Notes under the pieces: model-generated | Databases searched by the model: none | What the model was told of the DNA's origin: nothing | Seen by the model: only the letters and a program-made list of their open reading frames with translations | NCBI GenBank assembly: GCA_905339405.1 | Contig: CAJPGC010000034.1 | Span: forward strand, 3,052 to 67,051 | From: an uncultured bacterium | GTDB lineage: Bacteria; Desulfobacterota; GWC2-55-46 | DNA: 64,000 nt | Direction of reading: 5' to 3' | In this document: piece after piece, positions 2,078 to 30,788 of the stretch | Layout of the letters: every line of letters starts with the position of its first letter | How positions within the stretch are numbered: the stretch's first letter is position 1 | Translations under genes and position numbers: made by a program

Positions 2078-2083
2078 GTTTTG

Positions 2084-8193: not shown

Positions 8194-8232
8194 GTTAACC
8201 AGTAGGCGGCCCTTCTTTATGGAGGGTTTGGA

Positions 8233-8262
8233 GCCGCGGCGTATGCCGCGGCTTTTTCTTTG
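8233..8262 (+). terminator. Intrinsic terminator downstream of the GH13 gene
   Basis: gccgcggcgtatgccgcggc hairpin followed by tttttctttg. Confidence 0.6.
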
Positions 8263-8299
8263 TTGAGGGGACGGCGTCTTTTGGGATAGACTCTTTTTC

Positions 8300-8719: not shown

Positions 8720-9068
8720 GCGGCGAAATCGCCAGCCGGTTTCACGTTGAGCCGGGCAGCACAGGAAGGAGCAGATGAAGCATTACCCGACCTGGTTCGT
8801 GGTTAAAAAGTACGGCCTCATGATATTCGCCGAACAGCCGAAAAGAGCATAGGCGCGGTGAGTCGCTGCTTCGCCCAGGTGACGCAGGCAGCTACAGTTG
8901 TTCTAATTTTGCGCTTGCCTTTTAACTGTTTTTTTAATATTCTTTGTGAATCCATATAAATAAAGAGTCCTCCACGGCCGATGACGCTTCTTGGCCGCGC
9001 TTTTGAATACATTTCAATGGCAGGAGAAGCATAGTCGGGCTCCGGCTTGTGTTTCTACCAATAGAGTC

Positions 9069-11657
9069 ATGGGACAAACCGGAACACCCAGTAAGAACCA
9101 TCTCATCCTGGCTTTTTTCTTTCTGACCGGCCTTACCGGGCTTGCGTACGAGCTTGTCTGGATAAGGCTCCTCATACTCTCCTTCGGTTCGACCCAGTTC
9201 GCCATAACTACCGTCCTTGCGACCTTCATGGCGGGGCTTGCCCTCGGGAGCGTGCTTTTCGGCCGCTTTGTCGACAGGTACCCGTATCCGCTCAAGGTCT
9301 ACGGTGTAATAGAGATAATACTAGGCATATATTGCATCATCTCGCCTCTCATATTCCATGTCGTAAAAGACCTGTACCTTTACGCCTCTCCAATTACCCC
9401 TGAGACGTCTTTCAGGGCCGATTTCGAGACCACCCAGTTTTTGCTTTCGCTTCTCGTGCTCATCGTGCCCACGACCCTCATGGGAGGCACTCTCCCGGCA
9501 CTGGTGAAGTACCTGGCCAGGTCGGAGAAAATAGGCTTCAACATTGCGCTGCCTTACGCCGTGAACACGCTCGGCGCGGTCACTGGCTGCCTGGCGACCG
9601 GGCTTTTCGCGCTCTACTATTTCGGCGTGAACGCGACAGTGTACCTTGCCGGGGCAGCCGATATCGTCGTCGGCGTACTGATACTGGTCCTCTACAGGGA
9701 CGCGGGGCGCGTGGAGAGCAAAGAGGCAAGCGCTGTTCCATACGTCCCGGTCCCTGCCGCGAAGGCCTCGAAAAGGCGGCTCAACGCTGTCGTCATCGGG
9801 GCCTTTTACTTTTCAGGATTCGCGAGCCTCGCTTACGAGGTCCTCTGGACAAGGGTGCTCTCGCTTGTGCTGGGCTCTTCGGTCTACGCCTTCACGATAA
9901 TGCTGGCGACCTTCCTTGCCGGGATAGGCATCGGCAGCGTGGTATTCGCCCCGTTCGTGGACAGGTGCAAAAGGCCGGTCTTCTGGTTCGCCATGCTCGA
10001 AGCTGTCATCGGACTTTTCGCGCTCGCCTCCATATTTATCTACAGGGAGCTGCCCTTCATATTCTTCAACCTCAAGCAGGCCTTCGGCACCCAGTTCTGG
10101 CTCTTCCTGGCCTTGAAGTTTCTCATCGCCTCTGCGGTCATGATAGTGCCGACGCTCGCCATGGGCGCCATCTTCCCGCTGGTGAGCAGGATATACGCTG
10201 AGGGCACCAGCACCATCGGAAGGAAAGTCGGCGACATATACATGTGGAACACGGCGGGGGCCATACTCGGCTCTTTCGCGGCCGGTTTCTTCCTCATCCC
10301 TTCGACCGGAGCGCAGACCGGGGTCATGCTCATAGCGGGCCTCAACATCGCCCTCAGCATCGTCATACTCTCCATGAGCGTCCTTGAGGCGAGATGGAAG
10401 TACGCGGCTGGCGTCCTACTTGCGGCCGGGTACGCCGTTGTGGCCTTCAGTCTTCCTTCGTGGGAGAAGATGGCGATGACCACCGGGATGTACGTCAACG
10501 ACTACGGCGACAAAGAGGACGCCTCGTTCGAGAACTGGAGGTTCGGCGAGAAGCTCCTTTACTACCATGAAGGGCTGAACGCCATAATAACCGTCCGAGG
10601 CTCGGGGCCCTCCGGCGAGGTCATAACATATGAGGCGAACGGCAAGACCGAAGCGCGGAGCGAAAACGGCAAACCTCCGAAAAGCTGGGCCATACTGGGA
10701 CACCTCCCGGCCATGCTGCACAAGGAAGAACCAAAGGAGGCCCTGGTCATCGGCCTCGGCTCCGGCGTGACGCTCGGTATGATGGGCCACTACCCTTACA
10801 AATCTTTCGACGTCGTGGAGCTCGAGCACGCCGTGGTAGACGCGGCCCGCTTTTTCTCGAAGGCCAACCACAACGTCCTTGACGACCCGAGGGTGCGCCT
10901 CCACGTGACTGACGGCAGGAGCTTCCTGGCGTCGGTCGACAAGAAGTACGACGTCATCGTCTCGGGCGTTTCCGACCCCTGGATATCCGGAGTCTCCAAC
11001 CTCTTCACCTACGATTATTTCACGGAGCTCAAGAGCAAGCTGAACGAAGGCGGCATCGTCGCCCTCTGGTTCTCCAATTACCGCAGCACGCCAGAGGACT
11101 TCAAGATGGGGCTCAATTCCTTTGCCGCCGTCTTCCCGAATACGAGCGTATGGTTCCATTATACGATGTCCCTTGACCTTGTCGTCATAGGCTCGGTTGG
11201 CGAGCACGCCCTCGACCTTGACAGGCTCAACGCCCTGTTCGAGCGGCCCGAGGTGAGATACGAGCTCGAAGCTATAGACCTGAAGTCGCCTTACGACGTT
11301 TTCTCGCTCTATCTTGCCGGGGGCAAGGACCTGCGGGACTTTTTAGGGGAGGCAGGGATAAATACGGACGAACGCCCGATACTCGAGTTCTCTTTGCCCA
11401 AGAGCCTTTACGGGAAGATAAACGGGCCTGAGCGGGTGCGCGAGCTCCTGGCTGCGTCCACCGCCGTCGCTCCGCCTGTCGAGCTTCACGGCCTCGACCC
11501 TTCTGATTTTTACCTCGAGCTCGGCAAAAACTACAACAAGTACGAGTTCAGGCTACCGCAGGCTCTGAAGGCCTTTGAAAAGTCGCTGGAACTGAACCCC
11601 GGCCAGAAGGAAGCCGCCACTTACGCAGGGCAGTTGAGGCGGGAGCTGGGCAGGTAG
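9069..11657 (+). CDS. Fused polytopic membrane domain + spermidine synthase-like (polyamine aminopropyltransferase family) protein with C-terminal TPR-like tail
   Basis: About 12 predicted TM helices in two MFS-like halves, followed by spermidine-synthase fold motifs (VIGLGSGVTLG, DVIVSGVSDPW). The six-frame ORF starts at 8991, but ATG 9069 (MGQTG...) is the more likely start. Confidence 0.75.
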   Translation: MGQTGTPSKNHLILAFFFLTGLTGLAYELVWIRLLILSFGSTQFAITTVLATFMAGLALGSVLFGRFVDRYPYPLKVYGVIEIILGIYCIISPLIFHVVKDLYLYASPITPETSFRADFETTQFLLSLLVLIVPTTLMGGTLPALVKYLARSEKIGFNIALPYAVNTLGAVTGCLATGLFALYYFGVNATVYLAGAADIVVGVLILVLYRDAGRVESKEASAVPYVPVPAAKASKRRLNAVVIGAFYFSGFASLAYEVLWTRVLSLVLGSSVYAFTIMLATFLAGIGIGSVVFAPFVDRCKRPVFWFAMLEAVIGLFALASIFIYRELPFIFFNLKQAFGTQFWLFLALKFLIASAVMIVPTLAMGAIFPLVSRIYAEGTSTIGRKVGDIYMWNTAGAILGSFAAGFFLIPSTGAQTGVMLIAGLNIALSIVILSMSVLEARWKYAAGVLLAAGYAVVAFSLPSWEKMAMTTGMYVNDYGDKEDASFENWRFGEKLLYYHEGLNAIITVRGSGPSGEVITYEANGKTEARSENGKPPKSWAILGHLPAMLHKEEPKEALVIGLGSGVTLGMMGHYPYKSFDVVELEHAVVDAARFFSKANHNVLDDPRVRLHVTDGRSFLASVDKKYDVIVSGVSDPWISGVSNLFTYDYFTELKSKLNEGGIVALWFSNYRSTPEDFKMGLNSFAAVFPNTSVWFHYTMSLDLVVIGSVGEHALDLDRLNALFERPEVRYELEAIDLKSPYDVFSLYLAGGKDLRDFLGEAGINTDERPILEFSLPKSLYGKINGPERVRELLAASTAVAPPVELHGLDPSDFYLELGKNYNKYEFRLPQALKAFEKSLELNPGQKEAATYAGQLRRELGR

Positions 11658-11681
11658 TCCCTCCAAAGGGTATTTTCCACG

Positions 11682-11711
11682 TTGACCTGACTTGGCCTTT
11701 TAAAGTATAAT
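11682..11711 (+). promoter_or_regulatory. Sigma70-like promoter upstream of prfC
   Basis: TTGACC, an 18-nt spacer, then TATAAT. Confidence 0.4.
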
Positions 11712-11764
11712 TTTATCAATCGGAATGGGCCTCCAGGGCCCATTTTTTTATTATCAGGGGAACC

Positions 11765-13348
11765 ATGCATAAGCACCATCAAAAGGAAATAGACAGGCGG
11801 AGGACCTTCGGCATAATAAGCCATCCGGACGCCGGCAAGACGACTCTGACTGAAAAGCTCCTCCTCTACGGAGGCGCAATACAGCTCGCCGGGGCCGTCA
11901 AGGCCAGGAAGGCCGCGCGCCACGCGACCAGCGACTGGATGTCGATAGAAAAGGAGAGGGGCATCTCTGTCACTACCTCGGTCATGAAGTTCAACTACCG
12001 GGACTTCGAGATAAACCTCCTCGATACGCCCGGCCACCAGGACTTCTCTGAAGACACCTACAGGGTATTGACCGCGGTCGACAGCGCCCTCATGGTCATA
12101 GACAGCGCAAAGGGCGTCGAGCCGCAGACCGAAAAGCTCATGGCCGTCTGCCGTATGAGGAACACTCCGGTCATAACCTTCATCAACAAGATGGACAGGG
12201 AGGGCATAAACCCGCTTGACCTCCTCGCCGACATAGAAGACAAACTGCAGATCGAATGCTCGCCCCTTTCCTGGCCAATAGGCTCGGGCAAGGGCTTCAA
12301 GGGCGTCTACAACCTCTACAGGAAGGAACTGCAGCTCTTCACGGCGGGGCAGGAGACGAGGCACAGGGACGGCCTTGTCATAAAAGACCTCTCGGATGCG
12401 AAGCTCGACGAGATCCTGGGCGGCCAGGCAAAGGAGCTCCGCCATGACATAGAGCTCCTCCACGGCGCGGCAAACCCGTTCTCCCTTGAGGACTACCTTA
12501 AAGGCATCCAGACCCCGGTATTTTTCGGGAGCGGCATAAACAACTTCGGCGTAAAAGAGCTTCTCGACGCAGTCGTCGAGCTCGCCCCGCACCCTGGGCC
12601 GAGGCAGGCGGTCGAGAGGGTCGTGTCCCCTTACGAGGCCGCTTTCAGCGGCTTCGCCTTCAAGATACAGGCGAACATGGACCCGGCCCACAGGGACAGG
12701 ATAGCCTTCATACGCATCTGCTCGGGCAGGTTCCACAGGGGCATGAAGGTCATGCACCACAGGATGGGCAAGGAGCTCATACTTTCGAACGCCACGATAT
12801 TCATGGCGCAGGACAGGGCCAACGTGGAAGAGGCCTTCCCCGGCGATATCATCGGCATACACAACCACGGCACGATAAAAATTGGCGACACCTTCACCGA
12901 AAAGGAGCCGCTGAAGTTCACAGGGATACCGAACTTCGCGCCCGAGCACTTCAGGAGGGTCATCCTGCGGAACCCGCTGAAGGCGAAGCAGCTTCAAAAG
13001 GGGCTCGCCCAGCTCACGGAAGAGGGCGCTGTGCAGGTCTTCAGGCCGGTTGCCGGTAACGACTACATACTGGGCGCTGTCGGCGCTCTCCAGTTCGACG
13101 TCACCATCGCGAGGCTCAAGGACGAGTACGGGGTAGACGCCACGTACGAGGCGTTCGAGGCACAGAGGGCCCGCTGGGTGGAGGGAGAAAGGAAGATGCT
13201 CGACGAGTTCGAGAAGAAGAACTCCACGCGCCTTGCCAGGGACATGGAAGGCAACCTCACGTACCTTGCGCCGAGCGAGTGGCAGCTCAACTACATGATG
13301 GAGCAGTGGCCGGATATGGTCTTTCACAGGACGCGCGAACACAACTGA
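11765..13348 (+). CDS. prfC: Peptide chain release factor 3 (translational GTPase)
   Basis: G1 motif [17 protein letters not shown] and the RF3-specific N-terminal [10 protein letters not shown]. 527 aa. Confidence 0.95.
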
Positions 13349-17728: not shown

Positions 17729-18127
17729 ATGGACCGAAACCTCTCCGGCTTTGCCGTCTTCCTTTTGCTCTTCGCGTATTCCACGATTACATTCGCAGAG
17801 CCGCTTCCGTCCTCGCTTGACCCGGGGAGCGCCGAGTGCGTCTCATGCCACCAGGACTCGATAACAGTAAACGAGCCGTTCGAGGTATGCCACCAGGGCG
17901 GCTGCGACCATCCTGTCGGGGTAAGCTATCAGTCGTTTTCTTCGCGGAACAGGGGGCTCGTCCCTGCCGATAAGCTCGACCCGGCCATAACTCTCGTGGA
18001 CGGCAAGATGGGCTGCCTTGCCTGCCATACGCCCTATGACGCGGCCGCCCACGAGACGGCCGGAAATTCCATGCTCTCGGTCGACAACAAAGGCAGCGCG
18101 CTTTGCGCGGCCTGCCACAGGAAATAG
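17729..18127 (+). CDS. Periplasmic triheme c-type cytochrome (paralog 1)
   Basis: Signal peptide. Three CxxCH motifs (CVSCH, CLACH, CAACH) plus a conserved C-x4-CDHP motif. Confidence 0.75.
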   Translation: MDRNLSGFAVFLLLFAYSTITFAEPLPSSLDPGSAECVSCHQDSITVNEPFEVCHQGGCDHPVGVSYQSFSSRNRGLVPADKLDPAITLVDGKMGCLACHTPYDAAAHETAGNSMLSVDNKGSALCAACHRK

Positions 18128-18251: not shown

Positions 18252-18668
18252 ATGAATTACGCTTTTGCAGCCCTTTTGTTCTCCATCCTCACACTGTTCG
18301 GCCTCTCCGGCACCTCCGGCGCGATGGACAAGGAATCTCTCGAATGCCTCGGCTGCCATGACGCTGCCGTGGCAACCGACGTGACCTTTCAGGTCTGCTC
18401 GGAGCCGGACTGCGACCACCCGTTCGGGATAGACTATCTTACCCTTGCGCTGTCGAACAAGGGCCTCAAAAACCCGTCGTTGCTGCCCCAGCCGATAAAG
18501 CTCGTCAACAACTCGACGATAGGCTGCGGCACGTGCCACGTACCCTTCAAGAAGAACGACCACTCCATACTCTCCAGCATGAGGAACCTTTACCCCGAGA
18601 TACCCGACCCGATGCTCGTCATGGACAACAGGCAGAGCCAGCTTTGCTTCGGCTGCCATTCAAAATAA
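18252..18668 (+). CDS. Periplasmic triheme c-type cytochrome (paralog 2)
   Basis: Signal peptide. CLGCH, CGTCH, CFGCH and the same C-x4-CDHP motif. It is collinear with paralog 1. Confidence 0.75.
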   Translation: MNYAFAALLFSILTLFGLSGTSGAMDKESLECLGCHDAAVATDVTFQVCSEPDCDHPFGIDYLTLALSNKGLKNPSLLPQPIKLVNNSTIGCGTCHVPFKKNDHSILSSMRNLYPEIPDPMLVMDNRQSQLCFGCHSK

Positions 18669-18895: not shown

Positions 18896-19060
18896 AGTAT
18901 CTTATCACGAGTGGCAGAGGGACTGGCCCGTAGAAGCCACAGCAACCGGTTCCGCGCAAGCGGAATGTCAGGTGCTAACTCCAGCAAGGCTTGCAAGCCT
19001 TGAAAGATAAGAACAGGTCAAGCCATTGAGCCTCTTCTTATCAAGAAGAGGTTTTTTTTT
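18896..19060 (+). ncRNA. SAM-I (S-box) riboswitch with terminator expression platform
   Basis: tcttatcacgagtggcagagggactggcccgtagaagccacagcaacc...ggtgctaactccagcaagg...gaaagataaga matches the S-box consensus (P1 cttatca/gataag, GGGACUGGCCC core, GGUGCUAA). It is followed by cctcttcttatcaagaagagg plus a T9 terminator. Confidence 0.85.
19029..19060 (+). terminator. Riboswitch-controlled intrinsic terminator
   Basis: cctcttcttatcaagaagagg hairpin plus ttttttttt. The 5' arm (tcttatcaaga) can alternatively pair with the P1 3' strand, forming an anti-terminator. Confidence 0.75.
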
Positions 19061-19106
19061 GTCTTCCGCCGGGCACCGGGGTGGAATAATAAGGAGGAGA
19101 ACACGG

Positions 19107-20363
19107 ATGAGCTACATGAAGGCGTTGAAATGCAGGGAGTGCGGGAAGGAATATCCCAAGGAAGCGCTCCACGTCTGCGAGCTGTGCTTCGGCCCGCTTG
19201 AGGTCGCTTACGAGTACGAAAAGATAAAGGGCGTGCTCACTAGGGAAGTGATAGAGAAGAGGGCTCCCAACATGTGGCGCTACAAGGAACTCCTCCCCAT
19301 CGACGGAGAGCCTACAGTCGGAGCGCAGGTCGGGTACACGCCTCTCGTGAAGGCGGACAACCTCGCGAAGGCTTTGGGCGTAAAAGAGATATACATAAAG
19401 AACGACGCGGTCAACTACCCGACGCTCTCGTTCAAGGACAGGGTCGTCTCCGTGGCCCTCTCGAGGGCAAGGGAGCTGGGCTTCAAGATAGCGGCCTGCG
19501 CCTCGACCGGCAACCTCGCCAACTCGGTCGCGGCCAACGCCGCTGCCGCCGGCATGGAAAGCTTCGTCTTCATCCCCTCTGACCTCGAGCAGACCAAGAT
19601 AGTCGGCACGCTCGTGTACGGCGGCACCGTCGTGGGCATCAAGGGCACTTACGACGAGGTCAACAGGCTCTGCAGCGAGATAGCCGGAAAATACGGCTGG
19701 GCCTTCGTGAACATAAACATCAGGCCTTACTACGCCGAGGGCTCAAAGACCTTCGGGTACGAGATAGCCGAGCAGCTCGGCTGGAAGCTCCCGCAGAACA
19801 TAGTAGTGCCGATGGCCGGGGGCTCTCTTATAACCAAGATACACAAGGCCTTCAAGGAACTCTCTATACTTGGCTTCGTGGGCCCTGTAACCACAAAGGT
19901 GTTCGGCGCGCAGGCAGCAGGGTGCTCGCCCATAATCAACGCCGTGAAGGAAGGCACCGAGCTCATACGCCCGGTCAACAAGCCCAATACCATAGCCAAG
20001 TCGCTGGCCATTGGAAACCCGGCCGACGGCTACTACTCCGCCAAGGTCATGAGAGAGTCCGGCGGTTGGGGCGAGAACGTAACCGACGAGGAGATAATAG
20101 ATTCGATGAAGCTCCTCGCGGAGACCGAGGGCATATTCGCGGAGACCGCCGGCGGGGTCACGCTGGGCTCGGCCAGAAAGCTCATCGACAGCGGCAGGAT
20201 ATCCAGGGACGAGTCGATCGTCGTGTGCGTGACTGGCAACGGGCTCAAGACCCAGGAAGCGCTCGCGGGCAAGATAAACCCGCCGACCATAATAAACGCC
20301 AGGCTTCAGGAGTTTGACGACCTGGTGAAGGCGGGCGGCAAGGAGTACGCTGTAAGGGCGTAG
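19107..20363 (+). CDS. Threonine-synthase-family PLP enzyme with N-terminal Zn-ribbon; candidate MetM-like O-phosphohomoserine-dependent homocysteine synthase (or threonine synthase)
   Basis: RBS aaggagga then ATG 19107 (MSYMKALKCRECGKEY). PLP lysine region SFKDR. Fold-type II PLP motifs. It lies immediately downstream of a SAM riboswitch and upstream of sulfur-carrier genes. Confidence 0.8.
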   Translation: MSYMKALKCRECGKEYPKEALHVCELCFGPLEVAYEYEKIKGVLTREVIEKRAPNMWRYKELLPIDGEPTVGAQVGYTPLVKADNLAKALGVKEIYIKNDAVNYPTLSFKDRVVSVALSRARELGFKIAACASTGNLANSVAANAAAAGMESFVFIPSDLEQTKIVGTLVYGGTVVGIKGTYDEVNRLCSEIAGKYGWAFVNINIRPYYAEGSKTFGYEIAEQLGWKLPQNIVVPMAGGSLITKIHKAFKELSILGFVGPVTTKVFGAQAAGCSPIINAVKEGTELIRPVNKPNTIAKSLAIGNPADGYYSAKVMRESGGWGENVTDEEIIDSMKLLAETEGIFAETAGGVTLGSARKLIDSGRISRDESIVVCVTGNGLKTQEALAGKINPPTIINARLQEFDDLVKAGGKEYAVRA

Positions 20364-20611: not shown

Positions 20612-21568
20612 ATGACAGACCATTTCATAGAAGATAAGACTACAAAAGTGACTGTAGCCGTCGACGGCACAGGGGCGGCGCAGAAGATAGACTTCAACGA
20701 CCTGAAGTCTGGCGGCTTCATAAAGCAGAGGCAGAAGGACCTGTTTACCGTGCGCCTGAGGTGCCCGGGCGGCAGGCTTTCAACCGAAAAGCTCGTCGAG
20801 ATATCGAAGATAGCCCACAAGTACAGCAAAAAGGGAGTGGTCCACTTCTCTTTCCGCCAGTCCCTCGAGATACTCTACGTAGACTACAAGGAGTTCAGCA
20901 CCGTCGTGGCCGAGCTCGAGAAGATCGGCCAGAAGGTCGCCTCCTGCGGCCCCAGGGTGAGGGTCCCGACCGCCTGCGGCGGCTGTGAGTACAACCCCAA
21001 CGGCCTCACTGACACGCAGAAGATGGCTGATATGGTCGACAAGACCTTCTTCGGCACGCCCACGCCGCATAAGTTCAAGACCTCTTTTTCCGGCTGCCCC
21101 ATCGACTGCGCCAGGACGAAGGAGATGGACATGGGCTTCCAGGGCGTAGTAGATCCGAAGTGGGAAGAGGAAGCCTGCACGGGCTGCACCATCTGCTCTG
21201 AGGCCTGCAAGGAAGACGCCATAGCCTCCGACCCGGACACCGGCAAGCCGATATTCGACCCCATAAAGTGCATATTCTGCGGGGACTGCATAAGGGCCTG
21301 CCCGACCGAAGCGTGGAAGCCGAAGAGGTACGGCCACATAGTGAGGCTCGGCGGCAAGCACGGCCGCCATCCGATGGAGGCCGTCGAGGTCTGCCAGTTC
21401 CTTCCGGACGAGAAGGTCGGGGATGCCATCAAGATGACCATCGACTGGTACAACGCGAACGGCAAGAGGGGCGAGAGGATAGGCAATACCATAAAGAGGG
21501 TAGGCCTCGAGAGCTACCTGAAGCACATGGAACCTGTATTCCAGAACGCCGCGAAAGCCGGGGCATAG
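20612..21568 (+). CDS. Dissimilatory-type sulfite reductase-like protein (nitrite/sulfite reductase siroheme half-domain with inserted 2x[4Fe-4S] ferredoxin domain)
   Basis: Siroheme/FeS coupling cysteines (SCGPRVRVPTACGGCE ... FSGCPIDCAR). Ferredoxin motifs CTGCTICSEAC and CIFCGDCIRACP. ATG 20612 (MTDHFIE) is chosen. Confidence 0.7.
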   Translation: MTDHFIEDKTTKVTVAVDGTGAAQKIDFNDLKSGGFIKQRQKDLFTVRLRCPGGRLSTEKLVEISKIAHKYSKKGVVHFSFRQSLEILYVDYKEFSTVVAELEKIGQKVASCGPRVRVPTACGGCEYNPNGLTDTQKMADMVDKTFFGTPTPHKFKTSFSGCPIDCARTKEMDMGFQGVVDPKWEEEACTGCTICSEACKEDAIASDPDTGKPIFDPIKCIFCGDCIRACPTEAWKPKRYGHIVRLGGKHGRHPMEAVEVCQFLPDEKVGDAIKMTIDWYNANGKRGERIGNTIKRVGLESYLKHMEPVFQNAAKAGA

Positions 21569-21575
21569 GAGCCAT

Positions 21576-21800
21576 ATGAGCGACTCTACTATAGACTTGC
21601 GCGGGGTCATGTGCCCCATAAACTTCGTTAAGACGAAGCTGAAGCTCGAGATGATGGAGCCCGGAGAGATACTCGAGGTCATACTCGACTCCGGCGACCC
21701 CATCCAGAACGTGCCCAAGTCGATAAAGGAAGAGGGGCACAAGATTGTCGAAGTAAAAAAAGAGGGCGATTTTTTCCGGCTTAAAGTCCAAAGAAGCTGA
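21576..21800 (+). CDS. tusA: TusA/SirA-family sulfurtransferase
   Basis: 74 aa. DLRGVMCPINFVKTKL has the CPxP active-site motif. Confidence 0.85.
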   Translation: MSDSTIDLRGVMCPINFVKTKLKLEMMEPGEILEVILDSGDPIQNVPKSIKEEGHKIVEVKKEGDFFRLKVQRS

Positions 21801-21976: not shown

Positions 21977-22258
21977 ATGTCGATAAAGGTCAGGATACCG
22001 ACCCCGCTCAGGAAGCTTACGAACGGCTCTGACGAGGTCAGCGCAACAGGCAGGAACGTAGGAGAGATAATCGAGGACCTCGAGAAGGCCTATCCCGGAC
22101 TCAAGGAGAGGATCTGCGAAGGGGACGGCAAGCTCCGCAGGTTCGTCAACATCTACCTGAACGACGAGGACATCAGGTTCAAGAACAACCTTGAGACCGA
22201 GCTCAAGGAGAACGACGAGCTTTCCATAATCCCAGCCATAGCGGGAGGCGCAGCTTGA
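21977..22258 (+). CDS. MoaD/ThiS-family sulfur-carrier protein (CysO/HcyS-like) with GG-AA C-terminus
   Basis: 93 aa beta-grasp-like protein ending ...IIPAIAGGAA. There are two residues after the Gly-Gly, as in HcyS-Ala type carriers that need JAMM processing. Confidence 0.8.
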   Translation: MSIKVRIPTPLRKLTNGSDEVSATGRNVGEIIEDLEKAYPGLKERICEGDGKLRRFVNIYLNDEDIRFKNNLETELKENDELSIIPAIAGGAA

Positions 22259-22491
22259 AAAAAAGGGTGTATCTCACCTATCCGAAGGAACAGGTCAAGG
22301 AACCGCTCCTTTACCAGGTAGGGAAGAACTTCGAGGTCGTGACCAACATCAGGCAGGCGAGCGTTTCCGACAAGCTTGGCCTCGTGGCTCTCGAGCTCGA
22401 CGGCGAGCCTGAGGAGATCGAGAAGGCGATACAGTTCCTTGTGGACAAGGGCGTCAAGGTCGAGCCCATAGAGCTCGACATAATAGAGTAG
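22255..22491 (+). CDS. Stand-alone NIL-domain protein (MetN C-terminal-like regulatory/ligand-binding domain)
   Basis: 78 aa. TTG start overlaps the carrier gene stop (TTGA). LLYQVGKNFEVVTNIRQASV...LGLVALELDGEPEEIEKAIQFL resembles the NIL domain. Confidence 0.55.
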   Translation: MKKRVYLTYPKEQVKEPLLYQVGKNFEVVTNIRQASVSDKLGLVALELDGEPEEIEKAIQFLVDKGVKVEPIELDIIE

Positions 22492-22763
22492 CCCTGGAGG
22501 TCCGGACTCTCTCAAAACCGCCGGTCCGGGTACTGTACAGGGCAGGTCATGAGAGCGAAAAGGATTGTTTTTTCTTGAAAAACCCCGGCATTCAGCTGCC
22601 GGGGTTTTTTTTATTTCCAGAGGCGCCAAGCCGCTCAAATTATCTTGACAGGGCTACTAAGGTATTATAAACTTGAGAAGCTTACTAAGGTATTTTTCCG
22701 CTCAGGCAGCGCCCGAAATCCCGGTTCAGGAAAAGTTCACCCCCCGTGGGGAGGTATTATAAT

Positions 22764-23717
22764 ATGAGAGGACAGAGGCTGCTTGAAAACCAGCCAGCAA
22801 GGCAGTATTCAATGGCAAAAGGCTCAGTAATAAACCTTGTCGGAAATACCCCGTTAGTCAGGATAAACAGCATAACAAGGGACCTGCCTCCCGAGGTAGA
22901 AGTTTACGCCAAGCTCGAGGGCTATAACCCAGGAGGCTCGGTCAAGGACAGGGCCGCCCTCAGCATGATACTTGACGCCGAGGCGAGCGGCAGACTGACC
23001 CCCGACAAGATAATCCTTGATTCGACCTCAGGCAACACAGGCATAGCCTACGCGTGGATAGGCGCCGTGAAGGGCTATAGCGTCGAGCTCGTCGTCCCGG
23101 CCAACGTAAGCGAGGAAAGAAAGAAGATTTTGAACGCTTTCGGCGCCCATGTCATCTATTCGAACCCTCTGGAGGGTTCTGACGGCGCCATCAGGCTCGC
23201 CTGGAAACTCTACGTCGAAAACCCCGAAAAATACTGCAAGCTCGACCAGTACAACAACCCCTCGAACCCGCTCGCCCATTTCAACGGCACAGGGGCCGAG
23301 ATAATAGAGCAGACCGAGGGCAGGGTAACTCATTTCGTGGCCTCGATCGGCACCGGCGGCACCATCATGGGCACCGGCAGAAGGCTCAAGGAATTCAACC
23401 CCGACATACAGGTACAGGCCGTCGAGCCTGCCACGGCCTTCCACGGCCTCGAAGGGTTGAAGCACATGGCCTCTTCGATAGTCCCCGGCATATACCACGA
23501 AGAAGAGCTCGACGAGAAGATACCTGCCCCGACCGAAGAGTCGTATACGATGGCCAAGAGGCTTGCAAGGGAAGAAGGCCTTCTTGTCGGCCAGTCTTCC
23601 GGGGCTGCCATGTGGGGAGCCCTGGAAGTCGCCAAAAAGCTCAAGAAGGGCGTAGTGGTCGTCATATTCCCGGACGGCGGAGATAAGTATCTGTCAACGC
23701 GCCTCTGGGAAGCGTAA
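22764..23717 (+). CDS. cysM: Cysteine synthase (CysM/CysK family, PLP fold-type II; probable thiocarboxylate-dependent O-phosphoserine/O-acetylserine sulfhydrylase)
   Basis: GNTPLVRI, the PLP lysine in NPGGSVKDRAA, and the GTGGT glycine loop (SIGTGGTIMG). RBS ggggagg lies upstream of ATG 22764. Confidence 0.85.
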   Translation: MRGQRLLENQPARQYSMAKGSVINLVGNTPLVRINSITRDLPPEVEVYAKLEGYNPGGSVKDRAALSMILDAEASGRLTPDKIILDSTSGNTGIAYAWIGAVKGYSVELVVPANVSEERKKILNAFGAHVIYSNPLEGSDGAIRLAWKLYVENPEKYCKLDQYNNPSNPLAHFNGTGAEIIEQTEGRVTHFVASIGTGGTIMGTGRRLKEFNPDIQVQAVEPATAFHGLEGLKHMASSIVPGIYHEEELDEKIPAPTEESYTMAKRLAREEGLLVGQSSGAAMWGALEVAKKLKKGVVVVIFPDGGDKYLSTRLWEA

Positions 23718-23980: not shown

Positions 23981-24436
23981 ATGGGGCTTTTCGGTTTCGG
24001 CAAGACAGCCGTACACATATCCAGGTCGGTATACGAGGAAATACTCAGTCACGCGAAGGAAGCTTACCCGAACGAGTGCTGCGGAGTGCTCGTCGGCGCG
24101 AACTACGGCGGCGAGCGCAAGATATTCGAATCCCACAGGGCGACCAACGTCAACACGGACAGGGCCCACGACAGGTACATAATCGACCCGAGGGAGTTCA
24201 ACCTCATCGACAAGATGGCAAGGTCGCAGTCGATGGACGTCATGGGCTTTTACCATTCTCATCCAGACCATCCGGACAAGCCCTCCCAGACCGACAGGGA
24301 ATGGGGACAGACCGGCTACTCCTACATCATCGTCGCCGTCAAGGGCGGCAAGGAGACTTCGATGAGGAGCTGGATGATAGAGGACGACACGGCCCCGTTC
24401 ACTGAAGAGAAGATAAAGGTACTCGAAAACCAGTAA
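23981..24436 (+). CDS. JAMM/MPN+ metalloprotease (Mec+/CysO-cysteine peptidase, HcyD-like)
   Basis: JAMM motif HSHPDHPDKPSQTD (H-x-H-x7-S-x2-D) and upstream conserved Glu in NECCGVLVG. Confidence 0.85.
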   Translation: MGLFGFGKTAVHISRSVYEEILSHAKEAYPNECCGVLVGANYGGERKIFESHRATNVNTDRAHDRYIIDPREFNLIDKMARSQSMDVMGFYHSHPDHPDKPSQTDREWGQTGYSYIIVAVKGGKETSMRSWMIEDDTAPFTEEKIKVLENQ

Positions 24437-24558: not shown

Positions 24559-25383
24559 ATGGATTTCACAGAAGAGCAGATTGAGCGGTATTCGAGGCAT
24601 ATAATACTCCCGGAGGTGGGGGGCAAGGGGCAGGCTAAGCTCCTTAAAAGCAAGGTCTTCGTGCTGGGCGCGGGCGGCCTGGGCTCGCCTTCGCTCCTTT
24701 ATCTCGCGGCTGCCGGCGTGGGCACCATCGGCATAGCCGACGGCGACTCGGTCGACATGAGCAACCTCCAGCGCCAGATAATCCATAACAACGAGCGCGT
24801 CGGAGTGCCAAAGGTCCACTCCGCGAAAGAGACCATAAACAAGCTGAACCCCGACGTCAACGTGCAGCCCTTCCACGGCAGGCTCACCGTCGACAACATA
24901 AGGGAGATAATAAGGGATTACGACGTCGTCCTGGACGGCTCGGACAACTTCCCCACCCGCTTTCTCATGAACGACGCCTGCTTCTTCGAGCAAAAGCCCC
25001 TTGTCTCGGGCTCGATGTTCAGGTTCGACGGCCAGGTCTCGGTCTTCCACCCGAGAAAGGGCTTCCCGTGCTACAGGTGCCTGTACCCGGAGCCCCCGCC
25101 AAAGGGGCTCGTGCCGAGCTGCCAGGAAGCGGGAGTTCTCGGAGCGCTCGCCGGAGTCATCGGCGTACTCCAGGCCGTGGAGACAATAAAACTCCTCCTT
25201 GGCATCGGTGACACCCTCGAGGGCCATCTCATGATATTCGACGCCCTCAAGATGAACTTTCGCAAGGTCAGGGTCAGGAAAGACCCCGAGTGCGCCCTGT
25301 GCGGAGAGAACGCCACAATAAAAGAACTCGTGGCCTATGAAGAACAGGCCTGCGAATACAAACCGGTCACCTGCGAACACTAA
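24559..25383 (+). CDS. MoeB/ThiF-type E1 adenylyltransferase for sulfur-carrier activation (no rhodanese domain)
   Basis: YSRHIILPEVGGKGQAKL. Glycine-rich ATP loop VLGAGGLGSP. CxxC pairs (CYRC ... CALC). 274 aa, so it lacks a C-terminal rhodanese module. Confidence 0.85.
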   Translation: MDFTEEQIERYSRHIILPEVGGKGQAKLLKSKVFVLGAGGLGSPSLLYLAAAGVGTIGIADGDSVDMSNLQRQIIHNNERVGVPKVHSAKETINKLNPDVNVQPFHGRLTVDNIREIIRDYDVVLDGSDNFPTRFLMNDACFFEQKPLVSGSMFRFDGQVSVFHPRKGFPCYRCLYPEPPPKGLVPSCQEAGVLGALAGVIGVLQAVETIKLLLGIGDTLEGHLMIFDALKMNFRKVRVRKDPECALCGENATIKELVAYEEQACEYKPVTCEH

Positions 25384-25588
25384 ACCGGCAGGCTCGCTGA
25401 TTTATTGAGAGAACCTTTTTGTAAAAAGGTTCTCTCAAACTCTCTCCAAAAACTTATAGTTCTTCCCGGGACAACCCCCTTAAGGGGGCTGTCCCGGGAA
25501 CTTAAAGTCTTTGAAGGGGGTCTGGGGGAGACTTTCTACAGAAAGTTTCCCCCAAAAAATCCAGCGGTCTGACGGGCAAGCGAGAATA

Positions 25589-26788
25589 ATGCACAATTAC
25601 CTGGACAATCCGGCGTCCCTCAAGATAGACCTGATGCTTCGGGGCATAAGGATGGAAGACCCCGTCGTGAAGGCCTGGGCCTGCGGCTGTTCGGGCATTG
25701 ACATGCTTCTGCCGCAGGACACGCTCGTCAACATACCCTGCATGGAAGAGTTCACGAGGAACTCGCCGTACACGGTGAAGAGGGCGGGGGAGAGGTATTT
25801 CATTACGGACGGCAGGGCCGAGGTCGAGGTGAAACTCGTGGAAAGGCCGGCCTTCTATTCGAGGAAGACTACCTCCGGGGTGCAGTTCTCGGAGATTGCC
25901 TCCGTTCACGGCAGCTACACGGTAATAACGCCTTCGCCGAGGTGCGACTTTTTCAACCGCAGCATCGAGTGCAGGTACTGCGCCGGGAATTTCGACGTAA
26001 AGGGCTCATCCGACGTCGTCTACACGATAGAGGACATACTGGAGACGGTCGAGGCGGTCCTCAAAGAGAAGGCCTCGGAGGTCATATACCTGTCCATCGG
26101 CTTCAGCCAGGGCGACGACGGCGGAATAGCGTTTTTGAAGCCTTACATACAGGCCATTAAGAAGAGCTTCAACTGCCTTGTGGCCGTGGAGGCGCTGCCG
26201 CCCAGGGACAACCGCTGGATAGACGAGACGTACGCGATGGGGGCCGACTCGGTCCTTTATAACCTCGAGATATTCGACAAGGAGCTCTTCGAGCTGATAT
26301 GCCCGGGCAGGGCTTCCCTCGTGGGGCGCAAAAGATACCTCGAGTCGCTGAAGTACGCCGCGAAGGTATTCCCCAACGGCACTGTGGCTTCCCACCTCAT
26401 TGTGGGGCTCGAGCCTCCCGGGTCTACCTGCATGGGGATAGACTGCTTCACGGACATGGGAGTAGTGCCCATCCTTCCCATCTACAGGCCCTCGGCCGGG
26501 AAGGCGTTGAGGATAGAGCCTCTGACGACTGAGATAATACTGCCGGTCTACAAGCACCTTTACAACGCTGTCAAGAAAAACGGGATAAACCTCTCCTGGG
26601 TGCGTGACATAAGCATGGTGACGACCCCGGCCGAGATACGGGGCCTGGTCGACGGCGGCAAGGGCGGCACTCTCATGGAGAGCTTCTACAAGTCCAGGAT
26701 CGGGCTCAAGGCCGCCTGGGGGCTCTCTACGATAAGGAGGAAGCTCAGGGTCGTAGGCAGCGATGACTCAGACCCTTCGAAACACTGA
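25589..26788 (+). CDS. Radical-SAM-like TIM-barrel protein with atypical cysteine motif (C-x8-C-x2-C); function unknown
   Basis: SPRCDFFNRSIECRYCAG followed by rSAM-like glycine-rich and beta/alpha barrel blocks (VIYLSIGFSQGDDGG, HLIVGLEPPGS). ATG 25589 is chosen. Family not recognised. Confidence 0.4.
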   Translation: MHNYLDNPASLKIDLMLRGIRMEDPVVKAWACGCSGIDMLLPQDTLVNIPCMEEFTRNSPYTVKRAGERYFITDGRAEVEVKLVERPAFYSRKTTSGVQFSEIASVHGSYTVITPSPRCDFFNRSIECRYCAGNFDVKGSSDVVYTIEDILETVEAVLKEKASEVIYLSIGFSQGDDGGIAFLKPYIQAIKKSFNCLVAVEALPPRDNRWIDETYAMGADSVLYNLEIFDKELFELICPGRASLVGRKRYLESLKYAAKVFPNGTVASHLIVGLEPPGSTCMGIDCFTDMGVVPILPIYRPSAGKALRIEPLTTEIILPVYKHLYNAVKKNGINLSWVRDISMVTTPAEIRGLVDGGKGGTLMESFYKSRIGLKAAWGLSTIRRKLRVVGSDDSDPSKH

Positions 26789-28235
26789 TGCTGGAGTTCT
26801 TTGCGTGAGTTTACAAATCGACACCCGGCCAATCTGGCTGATACTGGCCATCAAATGCCTGAGGCCGGTATTTTTCCTGGTCCTTGCCTCGCTGTTCCTG
26901 TATTTCATCTGGATGCCCGCACCCGTGGGCCTCTCAATAGAGGGCCAGCGGGCCATCGCCGTATTCCTCCTTTGCCTCGTCCTGTGGGTATCTAACGCGA
27001 TACCGCTGGCGATAACGGGCATACTCGCCATCGTGCTGGTGCCGGTCCTAGGGATACTCCCGAACAAGGTCACTTATTCCCTTTTCGGGAACGAGGCCGT
27101 CTTTTTCATACTCGGCGCGTTCATCCTCGCGGGCGCGGTCATGCACTCGGGCATATCGAACAGGCTCGCCCTGTACATACTCGACAGGTTCGGGGGCTCG
27201 CCGAGGGGTCTTCTCATAACGGTATTCCTGCTGGCGGCTGCGCTCTCGTTCATAATGTCCGAGCACGCCGTGGCGGCCATGCTCTTCCCCATAGTCATCG
27301 AAATATCCAAGAGCCTGGGCCTCAAGCCCGGGAAGTCCAATTATGGTAAGCTCCTTTTCTTCTCCATGGCCTGGGGTTGCATAATCGGCGGCGTGGCGAC
27401 GTTCCTGGGGGGGGCGAGGGTGCCGCTAGCCGTGGGCATATTGAAGGAGACGACCGGCAGCCAGATAGGCTTTCTCGACTATTCCATCGCCGTCTTCCCG
27501 CTCGTCGTCATACTCCTTTTCGCGGGCTACATGCTCCTTACAAGGATATTCCCCATCGACATAACCGGGGTCGAGGAAGCCCACGGGGTCCTGAAGAAAA
27601 GGCTCAAGGCGCTTGGAAAACTGAGCTTCAGCGAGTACTCGGTCGGGGCGGTCCTCGCCATTACGGTCTTCGCCTGGATAGTCCTGGGCGAGAAGTTCGG
27701 GCTGGCGGCCATCGCGCTGGCCTCTGTCGTGGCCCTTTTCGTCTTCAGGATGGTAAGGTGGAAAGATATAGAAGAATACGTCAATTGGGGTATAATACTC
27801 ATGTACGGCGGGGCCATCGTGCTGGGGTCTGCCCTCGACAAGAGCGGCGCGGCCAAGTGGCTCGTCGGCATGGCTATAGGAGACTGGGCGAGCGAGCCCT
27901 GGGCGGCTTTCGCGCTCTTCTCGTTCCTTTCGATACTGCTTACGGCCGCCATGAGCAACGCGGCCGTCATCGCCGTGCTCCTGCCTGTGAGCATCGGCAT
28001 GGCTCAGACGCTCTCCATCGACCCCGTCATGCTCACTTACGCCATAGCGGTACCGGCAGGCCTCGATTTCATGTTCCCGATGGGCACGCCGGCCATCGCG
28101 ATAGCGGCCTCCTCGAACTACATAACCGTCAAGGAGAGCGCCAAGGGCGGCTTCGTCATGTTCGTCGCCGCATGGGTCGTTTTCAACCTCGTGGCGGCCT
28201 TCTGGTGGCCGCTCATAGGCATGGGCTATAGATGA
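26763..28235 (+). CDS. DASS/SLC13-family anion:Na+ symporter (candidate sulfate permease)
   Basis: Polytopic protein with duplicated hairpin-loop architecture, about 14 TM. The context is next to APS reductase and ATP sulfurylase. The start may lie downstream of 26763 (it overlaps the previous gene). Confidence 0.75.
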   Translation: MTQTLRNTDAGVLCVSLQIDTRPIWLILAIKCLRPVFFLVLASLFLYFIWMPAPVGLSIEGQRAIAVFLLCLVLWVSNAIPLAITGILAIVLVPVLGILPNKVTYSLFGNEAVFFILGAFILAGAVMHSGISNRLALYILDRFGGSPRGLLITVFLLAAALSFIMSEHAVAAMLFPIVIEISKSLGLKPGKSNYGKLLFFSMAWGCIIGGVATFLGGARVPLAVGILKETTGSQIGFLDYSIAVFPLVVILLFAGYMLLTRIFPIDITGVEEAHGVLKKRLKALGKLSFSEYSVGAVLAITVFAWIVLGEKFGLAAIALASVVALFVFRMVRWKDIEEYVNWGIILMYGGAIVLGSALDKSGAAKWLVGMAIGDWASEPWAAFALFSFLSILLTAAMSNAAVIAVLLPVSIGMAQTLSIDPVMLTYAIAVPAGLDFMFPMGTPAIAIAASSNYITVKESAKGGFVMFVAAWVVFNLVAAFWWPLIGMGYR

Positions 28236-28747
28236 AGAAGATACTCCTCGTGCTGTCGTACTCGGGTTTTTCAGGCAAGGCCATCGACGAGGCCGTAGCC
28301 AGGGCCAAAAAGGAGAAGGCGGCGCTTGCCGCCCTTTACCTTCTGGAAGGCGGGGCGGCCGAGAGCGTCTTCGACAAGTTTTCGGATATCGGCTTCATGG
28401 GCGACAGGCCTTCCGAGGACCTCTCCAGGCTCCTCATGAAGGAGTCGAGGCAAAGGGGTTACGAAGCGCTCGGCAAGGTGCAGATAAAGGCGATGGAAGA
28501 GGGCGTCCCGTTCGAGCCGCTGGTGGAAGAGGACGCAACTGTTGAAAAGGTCCTTGCGGTCATCGAAAAGACAGACCCTTCCGCCGTCTACGTGCTCAAG
28601 AGGAAGCAGAGGGCGTTTTTCAAGTATTTTACAAGATCGCTCGCCGACGAGCTTGCCGAAAGGGCAGGCTGCGAGGTGGCGGTGATTACCGAAGAAGGCG
28701 AACAGGAAAAGGAGGACGGTAATGTCAAAGGTATGGACGGAAAGTGA
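28232..28747 (+). CDS. Usp-like alpha/beta domain protein
   Basis: 171 aa. Usp-like N-terminus (KILLVLSYSGFSGKAIDEAV) but no clear ATP-binding glycine motif. Acidic tail. Confidence 0.4.
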   Translation: MKKILLVLSYSGFSGKAIDEAVARAKKEKAALAALYLLEGGAAESVFDKFSDIGFMGDRPSEDLSRLLMKESRQRGYEALGKVQIKAMEEGVPFEPLVEEDATVEKVLAVIEKTDPSAVYVLKRKQRAFFKYFTRSLADELAERAGCEVAVITEEGEQEKEDGNVKGMDGK

Positions 28748-29420
28748 ACTGAAAAATATAAGCGAAAGCCTCGAAGGAAAGGCGCCCGAAGAAGCGGTAA
28801 GGTGGGCGGTAGAGAACTTCGGGAAAAAAGAGCTTTCACTGGCGTGCAGTTTCGGGGCCGAGGACGTCGTGCTGGTAGACATGCTCGTGAAGATAAAGCC
28901 GGACGCGAGGATATTCTACCTGGACACGGACCTGCTCTTCAAGGAGACCCACGAACTCATGGAGAGGGTAAAAGCGAAATACGGCGTTGCCCCCGAGAGG
29001 TACGGCGCGAAAGCAACGCTTGAGCAGATGGAAAAGGACCTGGGCCCGGAGCTCTGGAAGAGGGAGCCGGACAAGTGCTGCGATATTAGGAAGATGGTCC
29101 CGCTGGCCGAGGCGCTATCCGAGCTCCGCTGCTGGATAACCGGCATAAGGCGCGACCAGGCCCCGACGAGGGCTAACGCTCCGGTCGTGAGCTGGGACGC
29201 GAAGTTCGGCCTCGTGAAGGTCAATCCGCTCGTCAGGTGGACCACTAAAGACGTCTGGGACTACATCACGAAGAATAACGTGCCGTACTGCACCCTTCAC
29301 GACAAGAACTTCCCGTCGATAGGCTGCGAGCCCTGCACCAGGCCGGTGGCTCCCGGGGAAGACCCGAGGGCCGGCAGGTGGGCCGGTTTCCAGAAGACCG
29401 AGTGCGGCCTTCACAAGTAG
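28722..29420 (+). CDS. cysH: Assimilatory adenylylsulfate (APS) reductase, thioredoxin-dependent, [4Fe-4S]-containing CysH
   Basis: PAPS/APS reductase fold with the C-terminal ECGLH motif. CC (KCCDIRK) and CxxC (GCEPC) cysteine pairs are characteristic of APS-specific enzymes. Confidence 0.85.
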   Translation: MSKVWTESELKNISESLEGKAPEEAVRWAVENFGKKELSLACSFGAEDVVLVDMLVKIKPDARIFYLDTDLLFKETHELMERVKAKYGVAPERYGAKATLEQMEKDLGPELWKREPDKCCDIRKMVPLAEALSELRCWITGIRRDQAPTRANAPVVSWDAKFGLVKVNPLVRWTTKDVWDYITKNNVPYCTLHDKNFPSIGCEPCTRPVAPGEDPRAGRWAGFQKTECGLHK

Positions 29421-29424
29421 GAAA

Positions 29425-29575
29425 AGATTTGTTGTCATTCTGAAGGAGCAAAGCGGCTGAAGAATCTCGTGCCTGCATCAAAAGACGAGATTCTTCGCTG
29501 CGCTCAGAATGACGAAATTTATAAGCATGAATCATTGTGGCAAACCGGAGCAATACTGCATTTGCTCCGCCCGCG
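29425..29575. repeat. MITE/REP-like palindromic repeat (gtcattctga...tcagaatgac type; related to 13349-13500)
   Basis: ttgttgtcattctgaaggagcaaagcggctgaagaatctcg ... cgagattcttcgctgcgctcagaatgacgaaattt. Confidence 0.55.
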
Positions 29576-29620
29576 ATGTTCTTTATCCTATAAAAAGAAA
29601 ATCCCCAGGAGGTATTTTTT

Positions 29621-30788
29621 CGTGGAAGGACTCATAAGGCCGCACGGCGGAGTGCTCGTAAACAGGATCCTCGAAGGCAAGGAGAGGGAGGACGCCGCCA
29701 ACAGGGCCGCCGGACTCAGGAAGATACGCCTCAACGAAAGGGAGATATCAGACCTCGAGATGATCTCCATCGGGGCATTGAGCCCCCTTGAAGGCTTCAT
29801 GGGCAGGGACGACTACCATTCGGTCATGGACACCATGCACATGAAGAACGGCCTGCCCTGGACGATACCCATAACACTTTCGGTCACGGCCGAAGAGGCT
29901 GGAGCCCTGAAGGCCGGTATGGAAGTGGCTTTGACCGACGGCGAGGGAACCGTGCTGGCCGTCATGTCGATAGCCGAGATATTCCCCCACGACAAGGAAA
30001 AGGAAGCGATACAGGTCTACGGCACCAGCGAGGACAAGCACCCCGGCGTCAAGAAGGTCTACGAGATGGGCGAGATGCTCCTGGGCGGCAAGGTGTCGAC
30101 CATAAAGAGACCTGTGCACACGAAGTTCATGGAAGAGAGGCTCGACCCGAAGGACACGAGGGCCCTGTTTACAGAGAAGGGCTGGAAGAAGGTCGTCGGT
30201 TTCCAGACTAGGAACCCCATACACAGGGCGCACGAGTACATCCAGAAGTGCGCTCTGGAGATAGTCGACGGCATACTCATACACCCGCTCGTCGGCGAGA
30301 CGAAGTCGGACGACATCCCGGCCGAGGTGAGGATGAAGTGCTACAAGGCCCTCATCTCCGGTTACTACCCGAAGGACAGGGTCGCCCTCGTCGTCAACCC
30401 GGCGGCCATGAGGTATGCCGGGCCCAAAGAGGCGGTTTTCCACGCCCTCATCAGGAAGAACTACGGCTGCACCCACTTCATAATAGGCAGGGACCACGCC
30501 GGGGTCGGCAACTACTACGGCACCTTCGACGCCCATTACATCTTCGAGAACTTCGACCCGCTGGCCATCGGCATAACGCCGCTGTTCTTCGACTACACCT
30601 TCTTCTGCAAGTGCTGCGGCGGCATGGCTTCGTACAAGACCTGCCCGCACGAGTCGGCGAACCACATAATCCTGTCAGGCACAAAGGTCAGGGAGATGCT
30701 GAGGAGCGGCGTTTGCCCGCCGCCGGAATTCTCAAGGCCGGAAGTTGCAAAGATTCTGATAGAGGCCATGCAGGGCCAGGCCCAGTAG
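29621..30788 (+). CDS. sat: Sulfate adenylyltransferase (ATP sulfurylase)
   Basis: QTRNPIHRAHE and GRDHAGV motifs. RBS ccaggagg precedes GTG 29621. The ORF-track start at 29469 would read through the repeat element. Confidence 0.9.

Follow-up and report, generated by a model that had tools for sequence, protein, structure and literature searches.

How is a ThiS-like sulfur carrier loaded when the E1 enzyme that activates it has no rhodanese domain to supply the sulfur? The question is raised by a 64,000-nucleotide stretch of DNA from an uncultured bacterium of the Desulfobacterota (lineage GWC2-55-46; contig CAJPGC010000034.1, positions 3,052 to 67,051), hereafter the window, in which a gene for a Dsr-like sulfite reductase (SiR) stands immediately before a gene for a TusA-family sulfur carrier, inside a cluster of sulfate-assimilation genes. 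An original prediction from the sequence held that sulfur leaves the reductase as a persulfide on TusA, on the model of DsrAB and DsrC, so that free sulfide is avoided. We find that the two proteins are coupled, and we think it probable that SiR is the sulfite reductase of the pathway and that TusA would relay its product to the E1-activated carrier. The two genes are:

20612–21568, plus strand: SiR, a predicted single-repeat siroheme sulfite reductase with an insert for two [4Fe-4S] clusters, of the group IIId Dsr-like protein (Dsr-LP) or Fsr C-terminal type ('GSU1351 type' in SEED), from domains, profiles and a structure match.
21576–21800, plus strand: TusA-family sulfur carrier with a single cysteine, Cys13, in a C-P-I-N motif, from PF01206 at 80.6 bits.

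Is the pairing of these genes more than an accident of this genome? One genome per species was scanned, which gave 80 loci, 79 of them with enough downstream sequence. TusA directly follows SiR in 70 of the 79 and lies within 2.1 kb in 6 more (76/79 in total), a pairing far beyond chance. Profiling of open reading frames (ORFs) in these loci showed the whole gene order to be kept in about 67 uncultivated species of Thermodesulfobacteriota ('Deltaproteobacteria'), and the linkage extends to anammox Planctomycetota, Nitrospirota and Carboxydothermus, with adjacency in at least four phyla. A second homologue search, started from a distant member of the family (P0107), returned mostly the same proteins as the first and added little. 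In the window the two genes are separated by 7 nt, and a GGAG sequence overlaps the SiR stop codon.

A search of 1.8 billion cluster representatives also uncovered natural fusions. Three independent SiR::TusA proteins (P0143, P0151 and P0165) have 57, 41 and 36 % identity to the window SiR, and one of the three occurs in metagenome-assembled genomes of Bacillota under three accessions. SiR is fused to ThiS in Chloroflexota and to JAB in four cultured Carboxydothermus species, where the operon comprises APS (adenosine 5'-phosphosulfate) kinase, TauE, AprAB-like proteins, Sat, ThiS, ThiF, JAB::SiR, TusA and a MetY-like enzyme. The fused SiR genes are located in thiocarboxylate modules. Because adjacency is kept in at least four phyla and SiR::TusA fusions have arisen three times independently, we conclude from these genomic comparisons that SiR and TusA are functionally coupled. 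It had been foreseen that TusA homologues in this position might instead serve tRNA thiolation alone, with MnmA partners encoded nearby; no MnmA-type gene is present in any annotated context of the SiR-TusA loci, so this objection does not hold there.

What kind of sulfite reductase is SiR? The ORF encodes 318 residues; homologues begin alike (MTDHFIEDK), which bears out the start codon, and the ribosome-binding site AAGGGAGA precedes it. Pfam places an NIR_SIR_ferr half-domain at residues 37–104 (55.1 bits, cutoff 24) and an NIR_SIR domain at residues 113–308 (91.6 bits, cutoff 27), the latter interrupted at 182–238 by two Fer4 motifs of the 4Fe-4S ferredoxin type. Across 80 homologues there is little or no variation at the eight ferredoxin cysteines (189, 192, 195, 199, 220, 223, 226 and 230) or at the four siroheme-cluster cysteines (122, 125, 162 and 166). 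A protein of about 318 residues with siroheme cysteines and an inserted two-cluster ferredoxin domain, as originally predicted, is therefore confirmed. In SEED one homologue is named 'sulfite reductase, GSU1351 type.'

Of the solved structures, the F420-dependent sulfite reductase Fsr matches best in sequence, through its C-terminal half (7np8), with E values of 4.5e-41 for the single sequence and 9e-53 for the family profile; the alignment covers only Fsr residues ~330–618. An AlphaFold2 model computed from 80 homologues (predicted local distance difference test score 83.6, predicted template-modelling (TM) score 0.82) was compared with solved structures. Query TM scores were 0.79–0.81 against Fsr (7npa/7np8; root-mean-square deviation 2.5 Å, E 1e-26), 0.67–0.71 against DsrA and DsrB, and 0.55–0.62 against CysI and nitrite reductases (0.55–0.58 for SiRHP). 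The earlier assignment to the DsrA/DsrB/AsrC architecture rather than that of CysI or Sir thus stands as to fold, which is of the Dsr/Fsr type, and fails as to family, the DsrA, DsrB and AsrC profiles all scoring far under their cutoffs.

Each named family could be set aside on particulars. SiR scores 71.8 bits with the DsrA profile TIGR02064 (cutoff 392.85) and has Arg82 where DsrA has Thr; it scores 80.6 bits with the DsrB profile TIGR02066 (cutoff 341.5) and has the motif C122-x2-C125...C162-x3-C166, not CxnCCx3C. There is one SiR gene, and neither dsrC nor dsrMK is in the cluster, unlike an alpha-beta Dsr system. The AsrC profile TIGR02912 gives 128.3 bits (cutoff 324.1), and the cluster contains no AsrA or AsrB homologues. 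At 318 residues SiR is without the N-terminal F420H2-oxidase half of a full Fsr, and it has one repeat, not the two tandem repeats (~570 residues) of CysI/Sir, whose profile NF010029 it matches at 32.7 bits (cutoff 457). The AsrC label was also dropped for relatives of SiR with Thr at position 112, as none of 10 representatives reached the AsrC cutoff.

Susanti & Mukhopadhyay (2012) assign to group IIId the proteins that have the siroheme-cluster motif, all four Arg/Lys residues and both peripheral and additional [4Fe-4S] clusters, and list Geobacter and Syntrophus among its bacterial members. SiR fits this group because its cluster cysteines (C122, C125, C162 and C166), eight ferredoxin cysteines and four basic residues are all present, with the first pair spaced C-x2-C, not C-x5-C. 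By these sequence features SiR is a group IIId Dsr-like protein whose nearest solved relative is Fsr's C-terminal half, rather than DsrAB, AsrC or CysI. Both have one repeat, a ferredoxin insert for two clusters, the four sulfite-binding residues, and an assimilatory-type Arg and Cys; in contrast to Fsr, SiR has no F420H2-oxidase half, has C-x2-C in place of C-x5-C, and has Cys112 in place of Glu418.

Does the active site predict a particular product? SiR residues R48, R117, K154 and K156 correspond to the sulfite-binding R355, R423, K460 and K462 of Fsr, and R82 and C122 correspond to Fsr Arg388 (Thr in DsrA) and Cys428, both assimilatory-type markers; all six are invariant in the 80 homologues. 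According to the Fsr structure paper (Jespersen et al.), residues of the Arg388/Cys428 type mark assimilatory enzymes and predict full six-electron reduction without a partner, and the siroheme of Fsr is buried; the group IIId Dsr-like class is described there as biochemically uncharacterised. Arg82 and Cys122 match these criteria, and the prediction for SiR is therefore the assimilatory six-electron path.

Two features set the SiR cluster region apart. The first cluster pair is C122-G-G-C125 (20975–20986), whereas Fsr, nitrite reductases and distant relatives have C-x5-C, and an invariant Asn128 occupies the position of their second cysteine. An extra cysteine, Cys112 (codon 20945–20947), is invariant in the family, lies five residues ahead of the sulfite-binding R117 and aligns beside the N149–R153 active-site loop of E. 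coli CysI; it may be equivalent to Cys161 of M. tuberculosis NirA, which likewise lies five residues before an active-site Arg. Of 150 diverse SiR representatives about half have Cys112, among them each of the seven that are fused to a pathway component. We rejected the idea that it stands in for the lost C-x5-C cluster ligand, because relatives with canonical C-x5-C carry it too.

What is its partner? TusA is a protein of 74 residues with a PF01206 score of 80.6 bits against a cutoff of 28.6, and its nearest solved relative is TM0983 (1jdq; E 4.5e-12). Cys13 is kept in all orthologues. The gene does lie directly after SiR, as originally noted, but the motif given for it, CPxP, is actually C-P-I-N; CPxN-FVK is conserved in the TusA of the window lineage, and the canonical form, as CPMP, is seen in Nitrospirota relatives. 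TusA is not DsrC or TusE: it has the TusA fold with one cysteine near the N-terminus, not two cysteines on a flexible C-terminal arm. The likeness to DsrAB-DsrC thus extends to a related fold (query TM 0.67–0.71), a ferredoxin insert, and the combination of a sulfite reductase with a small cysteine-bearing protein; in contrast, SiR is one subunit, Arg replaces the DsrA Thr, and TusA is unrelated to DsrC. With assimilatory-type Arg82 and Cys122 and a single-cysteine TusA, the DsrAB/DsrC analogy on which the hand-over was originally modelled is weak. Folding of the 176-nt spacer between TusA and the carrier gene is no more stable than that of shuffled sequence (z = -0.03).

Which pathway do the two proteins serve? 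They belong to a cluster at 19.1–30.8 kb, all on the plus strand, in the order ThrC-like, SiR, TusA, ThiS-like carrier, NIL, CysM, JAB, E1, radical-SAM (S-adenosylmethionine), DASS, Usp, CysH and Sat. Its other features are:

18899–19013, plus strand: SAM-I riboswitch aptamer (RF00162; Rfam 87.4 bits, gathering threshold 44.4).
19028–19064, plus strand: terminator-like hairpin and T-run, likely the expression platform of the riboswitch (12-bp stem, then T-run).
19104–20363, plus strand: ThrC-like pyridoxal 5'-phosphate (PLP) enzyme with an N-terminal Zn-ribbon, probable MetM-type homocysteine synthase (PALP domain; NF006050, 311 bits).
21977–22258, plus strand: ThiS/MoaD/SAMP-like sulfur carrier (CysO/HcyS/MetO-like) ending in ...AGG-AA (PF02597, 63.5 bits; NF041918, 66 bits).
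22255–22491, plus strand: stand-alone NIL domain protein (PF09383, 59.4 bits).
22577–22610, plus strand: terminator-like hairpin (14 bp) and T-run, a possible transcription-unit boundary (from a consensus scan only).
22746–23717, plus strand: CysM-type cysteine synthase, its real start probably the Met at 22812 (TIGR01138, 386 bits; TIGR01136, 355 bits, cutoff 344).
23981–24436, plus strand: JAB/MPN+ metalloprotease, Mec+/HcyD-like (PF14464, 84.8 bits).
24559–25383, plus strand: MoeB/ThiF-type E1 adenylyltransferase without rhodanese, 274 residues (PF00899, 280 bits, residues 11–246).
25511–26788, plus strand: variant radical-SAM protein (NF045502, 184 bits, cutoff 125).
26763–28235, plus strand: DASS/SLC13-type anion, perhaps sulfate, transporter (conserved in the cluster; the orthologue in loci L083/L085 has PF00939, Na_sulph_symp).
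28232–28747, plus strand: Usp-like protein (the L083/L085 orthologue has PF00582).
28722–29420, plus strand: CysH, an APS or 3'-phosphoadenosine 5'-phosphosulfate reductase and the sulfite source (NF002537, 272 bits, cutoff 154).
29469–30788, plus strand: Sat, ATP sulfurylase (from its translation and orthologues at the cluster end; the Carboxydothermus counterpart has PF01747).

The assimilatory setting originally proposed is borne out by the SAM riboswitch, CysH, Sat, CysM and the ThrC/MetM-like enzyme. So is the E1 without rhodanese, since the ThiF domain stands alone (residues 11–246 of 274). The tail of E1 (25330–25383) has a YEExxCE motif conserved in all E1 orthologues, with a second terminal cysteine in about half; from this conservation, the tail cysteine is a possible persulfide-handling or disulfide-resolving residue. 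Carrier orthologues almost always extend 1–3 residues beyond the GG, and JAB trimming is therefore needed. The ThrC-like gene directly upstream of SiR is conserved in related loci, and its product is probably a MetM-type homocysteine synthase using the carrier thiocarboxylate; a GapMind preprint of 2026, citing Hasebe 2024, describes MetM as a misannotated threonine synthase.

How, then, would sulfur travel? We suggest that Sat and CysH would generate sulfite, which a homodimeric Fsr-C-like SiR would reduce with electrons drawn through its two inserted [4Fe-4S] clusters. The reduced sulfur would pass to Cys13 of TusA and on to the ThiS-like carrier, itself first trimmed by JAB and then adenylated by the rhodanese-less E1, to end as a C-terminal thiocarboxylate. 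From this thiocarboxylate, cysteine and homocysteine adducts would be formed by CysM and the ThrC/MetM-like enzyme and then released by JAB. The place of TusA between SiR and the E1/carrier pair, like the chemical form of its sulfur, is what we infer rather than observe. The form we favour is a TusA persulfide, arising when nascent sulfide is captured through a TusA-E1 disulfide, or else from a partly reduced intermediate bound to siroheme; the E1 tail cysteine would then resolve the acyl-disulfide. A redox-neutral cycle of this kind, in which the TusA-E1 disulfide captures sulfide as TusA-SSH and the E1 cysteine resolves the acyl-disulfide, is plausible but speculative.

Is TusA needed at all? 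The best-surviving alternative, which we nevertheless consider unlikely, is that SiR carries out the whole six-electron reduction and the released HS- attacks the acyl-adenylate of the carrier directly, leaving TusA dispensable, as a buffer or scavenger of sulfide or a feeder of molybdenum cofactor, tRNA or Fe-S synthesis. Several points weigh on its side and against a relay through TusA. The SiR active site, with Arg82, Cys122 and the four sulfite-binding residues, looks like that of a sulfide-releasing enzyme. The siroheme of Fsr is buried and HS- is released, so direct access of TusA is uncertain. Free sulfide reportedly converts the adenylated carriers CysO of M. tuberculosis and HcyS of W. 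succinogenes to thiocarboxylates in vitro, and TusA is therefore perhaps not obligatory. Three of the 79 loci (L069, L070 and L079) have the same SiR type and no TusA nearby. Gene order and fusions, moreover, demonstrate coupling, not direction. Yet free sulfide leaves unexplained the near-universal adjacency, the translational coupling, the three independent SiR::TusA fusions and the constant co-occurrence of SirA/TusA with rhodanese-less E1s. Should SiR only make sulfide, the locus would be an ordinary case, though a complete one, of a class of pathway known since 2005–2011.

Could sulfur instead remain bound to protein throughout? The fusions, Cys112, the E1 tail cysteine and the occasional co-occurrence of DsrE, DsrEFH-like or DsrMK-like genes, read as sequence features, keep a protein-bound persulfide route open. 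In one such reading, to which we give low odds, SiR and TusA would together form an assimilatory 'sulfite-to-persulfide' reductase: Cys112, TusA Cys13 or both would intercept siroheme-bound sulfur, and sulfane sulfur, not sulfide, would reach the E1-activated carrier. If true, DsrAB-DsrC would have an assimilatory counterpart, and the group III Dsr-like proteins a function. The strict form of the original prediction, in which SiR halts at S(0) and passes its sulfur straight to TusA as a persulfide, DsrAB/DsrC-like, with no free sulfide, we regard as improbable. It accounts for the fusions and the tight linkage, for a family-invariant C112 on the loop aligning with E. coli CysI N149–R153 (present in 7/7 pathway-fused relatives, Glu in Fsr), and for the DsrE, DsrEFH-like and DsrMK-like genes accompanying some relatives; but the active-site residues are of the assimilatory and not the DsrAB type, TusA is no DsrC/TusE homologue and with its one cysteine lacks the flexible C-terminal arm, and C112 is found in loci without TusA too. 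Least credible, and very improbable, is that TusA acts upstream of SiR, delivering to it a Cys-S-sulfonate or thiosulfonate drawn from a CysH intermediate or thiosulfate: in Metallosphaera, thiosulfonate is carried by homologues of TusA and DsrE (PMC4175335), and the TusA-like YeeD works with a thiosulfate transporter (matches to PDB 8k1r/8j4c), but SiR retains a complete site for free sulfite, the window transporter is of the DASS type, not YeeE, and lies 5 kb away, and the linkage of TusA is with SiR and the carrier rather than with CysH.

We thus retain the relay through TusA. Is it a new kind of system? Iyer, Burroughs & Aravind (2006; PMC1779556) described, as class 4e, operons with ThiS/MoaD, JAB, a rhodanese-less E1, SirA/TusA, sulfate-assimilation genes and a sulfite reductase, in organisms including Geobacter, Wolinella and Carboxydothermus. 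In their account the E1 'always lacks' rhodanese, and SirA (TusA) is 'always' present and is the predicted rhodanese substitute. The operon logic and the idea of TusA in place of rhodanese were therefore published in 2006, and since the same operon class was described there, the window locus is a further example of it and not a new kind. All of its components, namely a GG carrier, JAB, rhodanese-less E1, TusA, sulfate-activation genes, SiR and a PLP sulfhydrylase, stand in one co-directional cluster in the window with the same logic, and the Carboxydothermus operon of that class has the same SiR type beside TusA. The window locus differs in having CysM and a ThrC/MetM-like enzyme, not MetY, and in adding NIL, the variant radical-SAM protein, DASS, Usp and the SAM riboswitch.

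Relations to characterised pathways are also close. The HcyS/HcyF/HcyD/Sir/MetY pathway of W. succinogenes, reportedly worked out by Krishnamoorthy and Begley in 2011, is said to be the characterised class 4e case, and for M. tuberculosis and W. succinogenes the reconstitution of thiocarboxylate-dependent cysteine and methionine pathways is reported. The CysO-CysM-Mec+-MoeZ system of M. tuberculosis and the MetM/MetO system of Streptomyces resemble the window locus in a carrier with a C-terminal extension, trimming and release by JAB, activation by E1, and use of CysM or a ThrC-like MetM; those systems have a rhodanese-fused E1 (MoeZ), whereas the window has TusA and a dedicated sulfite reductase in the operon. 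We found no direct link of this SiR type to TusA in the literature searched, and the retrieved passages on group IIId proteins (Susanti & Mukhopadhyay 2012) mention no gene link to TusA or thiocarboxylate synthesis. Group III Dsr-like SiRs are widespread, and the operon bears both on their role and on how sulfur is supplied to rhodanese-less E1/ThiS systems in cysteine synthesis. Together with the natural fusions, some of them in cultured Carboxydothermus, it offers a compact and tractable set for asking whether sulfite reduction feeds a protein-bound relay.

How is the locus regulated? The SAM-I riboswitch lies upstream of the ThrC-like gene in 7/7 related loci tested, and this conserved position 5' of the operon places SiR and TusA under SAM control. 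The hairpin that follows the aptamer overlaps a TTG 'start' at 19026, so the real start of the ThrC-like gene is the ATG at 19104. The second hairpin, a strong one after NIL, points to riboswitch control of the first five genes only, from ThrC-like to NIL; from such signals the cluster may comprise two transcription units, with the riboswitch governing only the first. Promoter-like sites are present at 22645–22763 (plus strand), before CysM.

Some further observations concern the genes around these two units. The stop of the carrier gene and the start of the NIL gene share 4 nt (22255–22258), and a relative (L083, 9394–9909) encodes a natural ThiS::NIL fusion of 171 residues. More than 40 related loci keep the variant radical-SAM gene between the E1 and transporter genes. 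A short way upstream of the riboswitch, two small paralogous ORFs (17729–18127 and 18252–18668, plus strand) have three CxxCH haem-binding motifs each.

The variant loci differ in what accompanies SiR. An anammox locus of Ca. Loosdrechtia (L075, 9199–13006) has a siroheme-synthase-like gene directly upstream of the SiR orthologue, followed by DsrE-like, CysM, JAB and TusA genes, with no ThiS or E1 detected nearby. The siroheme-synthase-like gene lends indirect support to the prediction that SiR binds siroheme. Nitrospirota have SiR, TusA and CysH, or SiR, AprAB-like genes and Sat without TusA; a locus of the latter kind (L070, 9422–14198) reads Rrf2-like regulator, SiR, AprA-like, AprB-like and Sat. 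Two DsrE-like genes, a DsrEFH-like set, another TusA gene and DsrMK-like genes come after SiR-TusA in a 57 %-identical relative (L081/L082, ~600–11900), along with genes for AIRS, GcvH-like and radical-SAM proteins and for LplA; the module resembles the sulfur-relay/lipoate modules of sulfur oxidisers.

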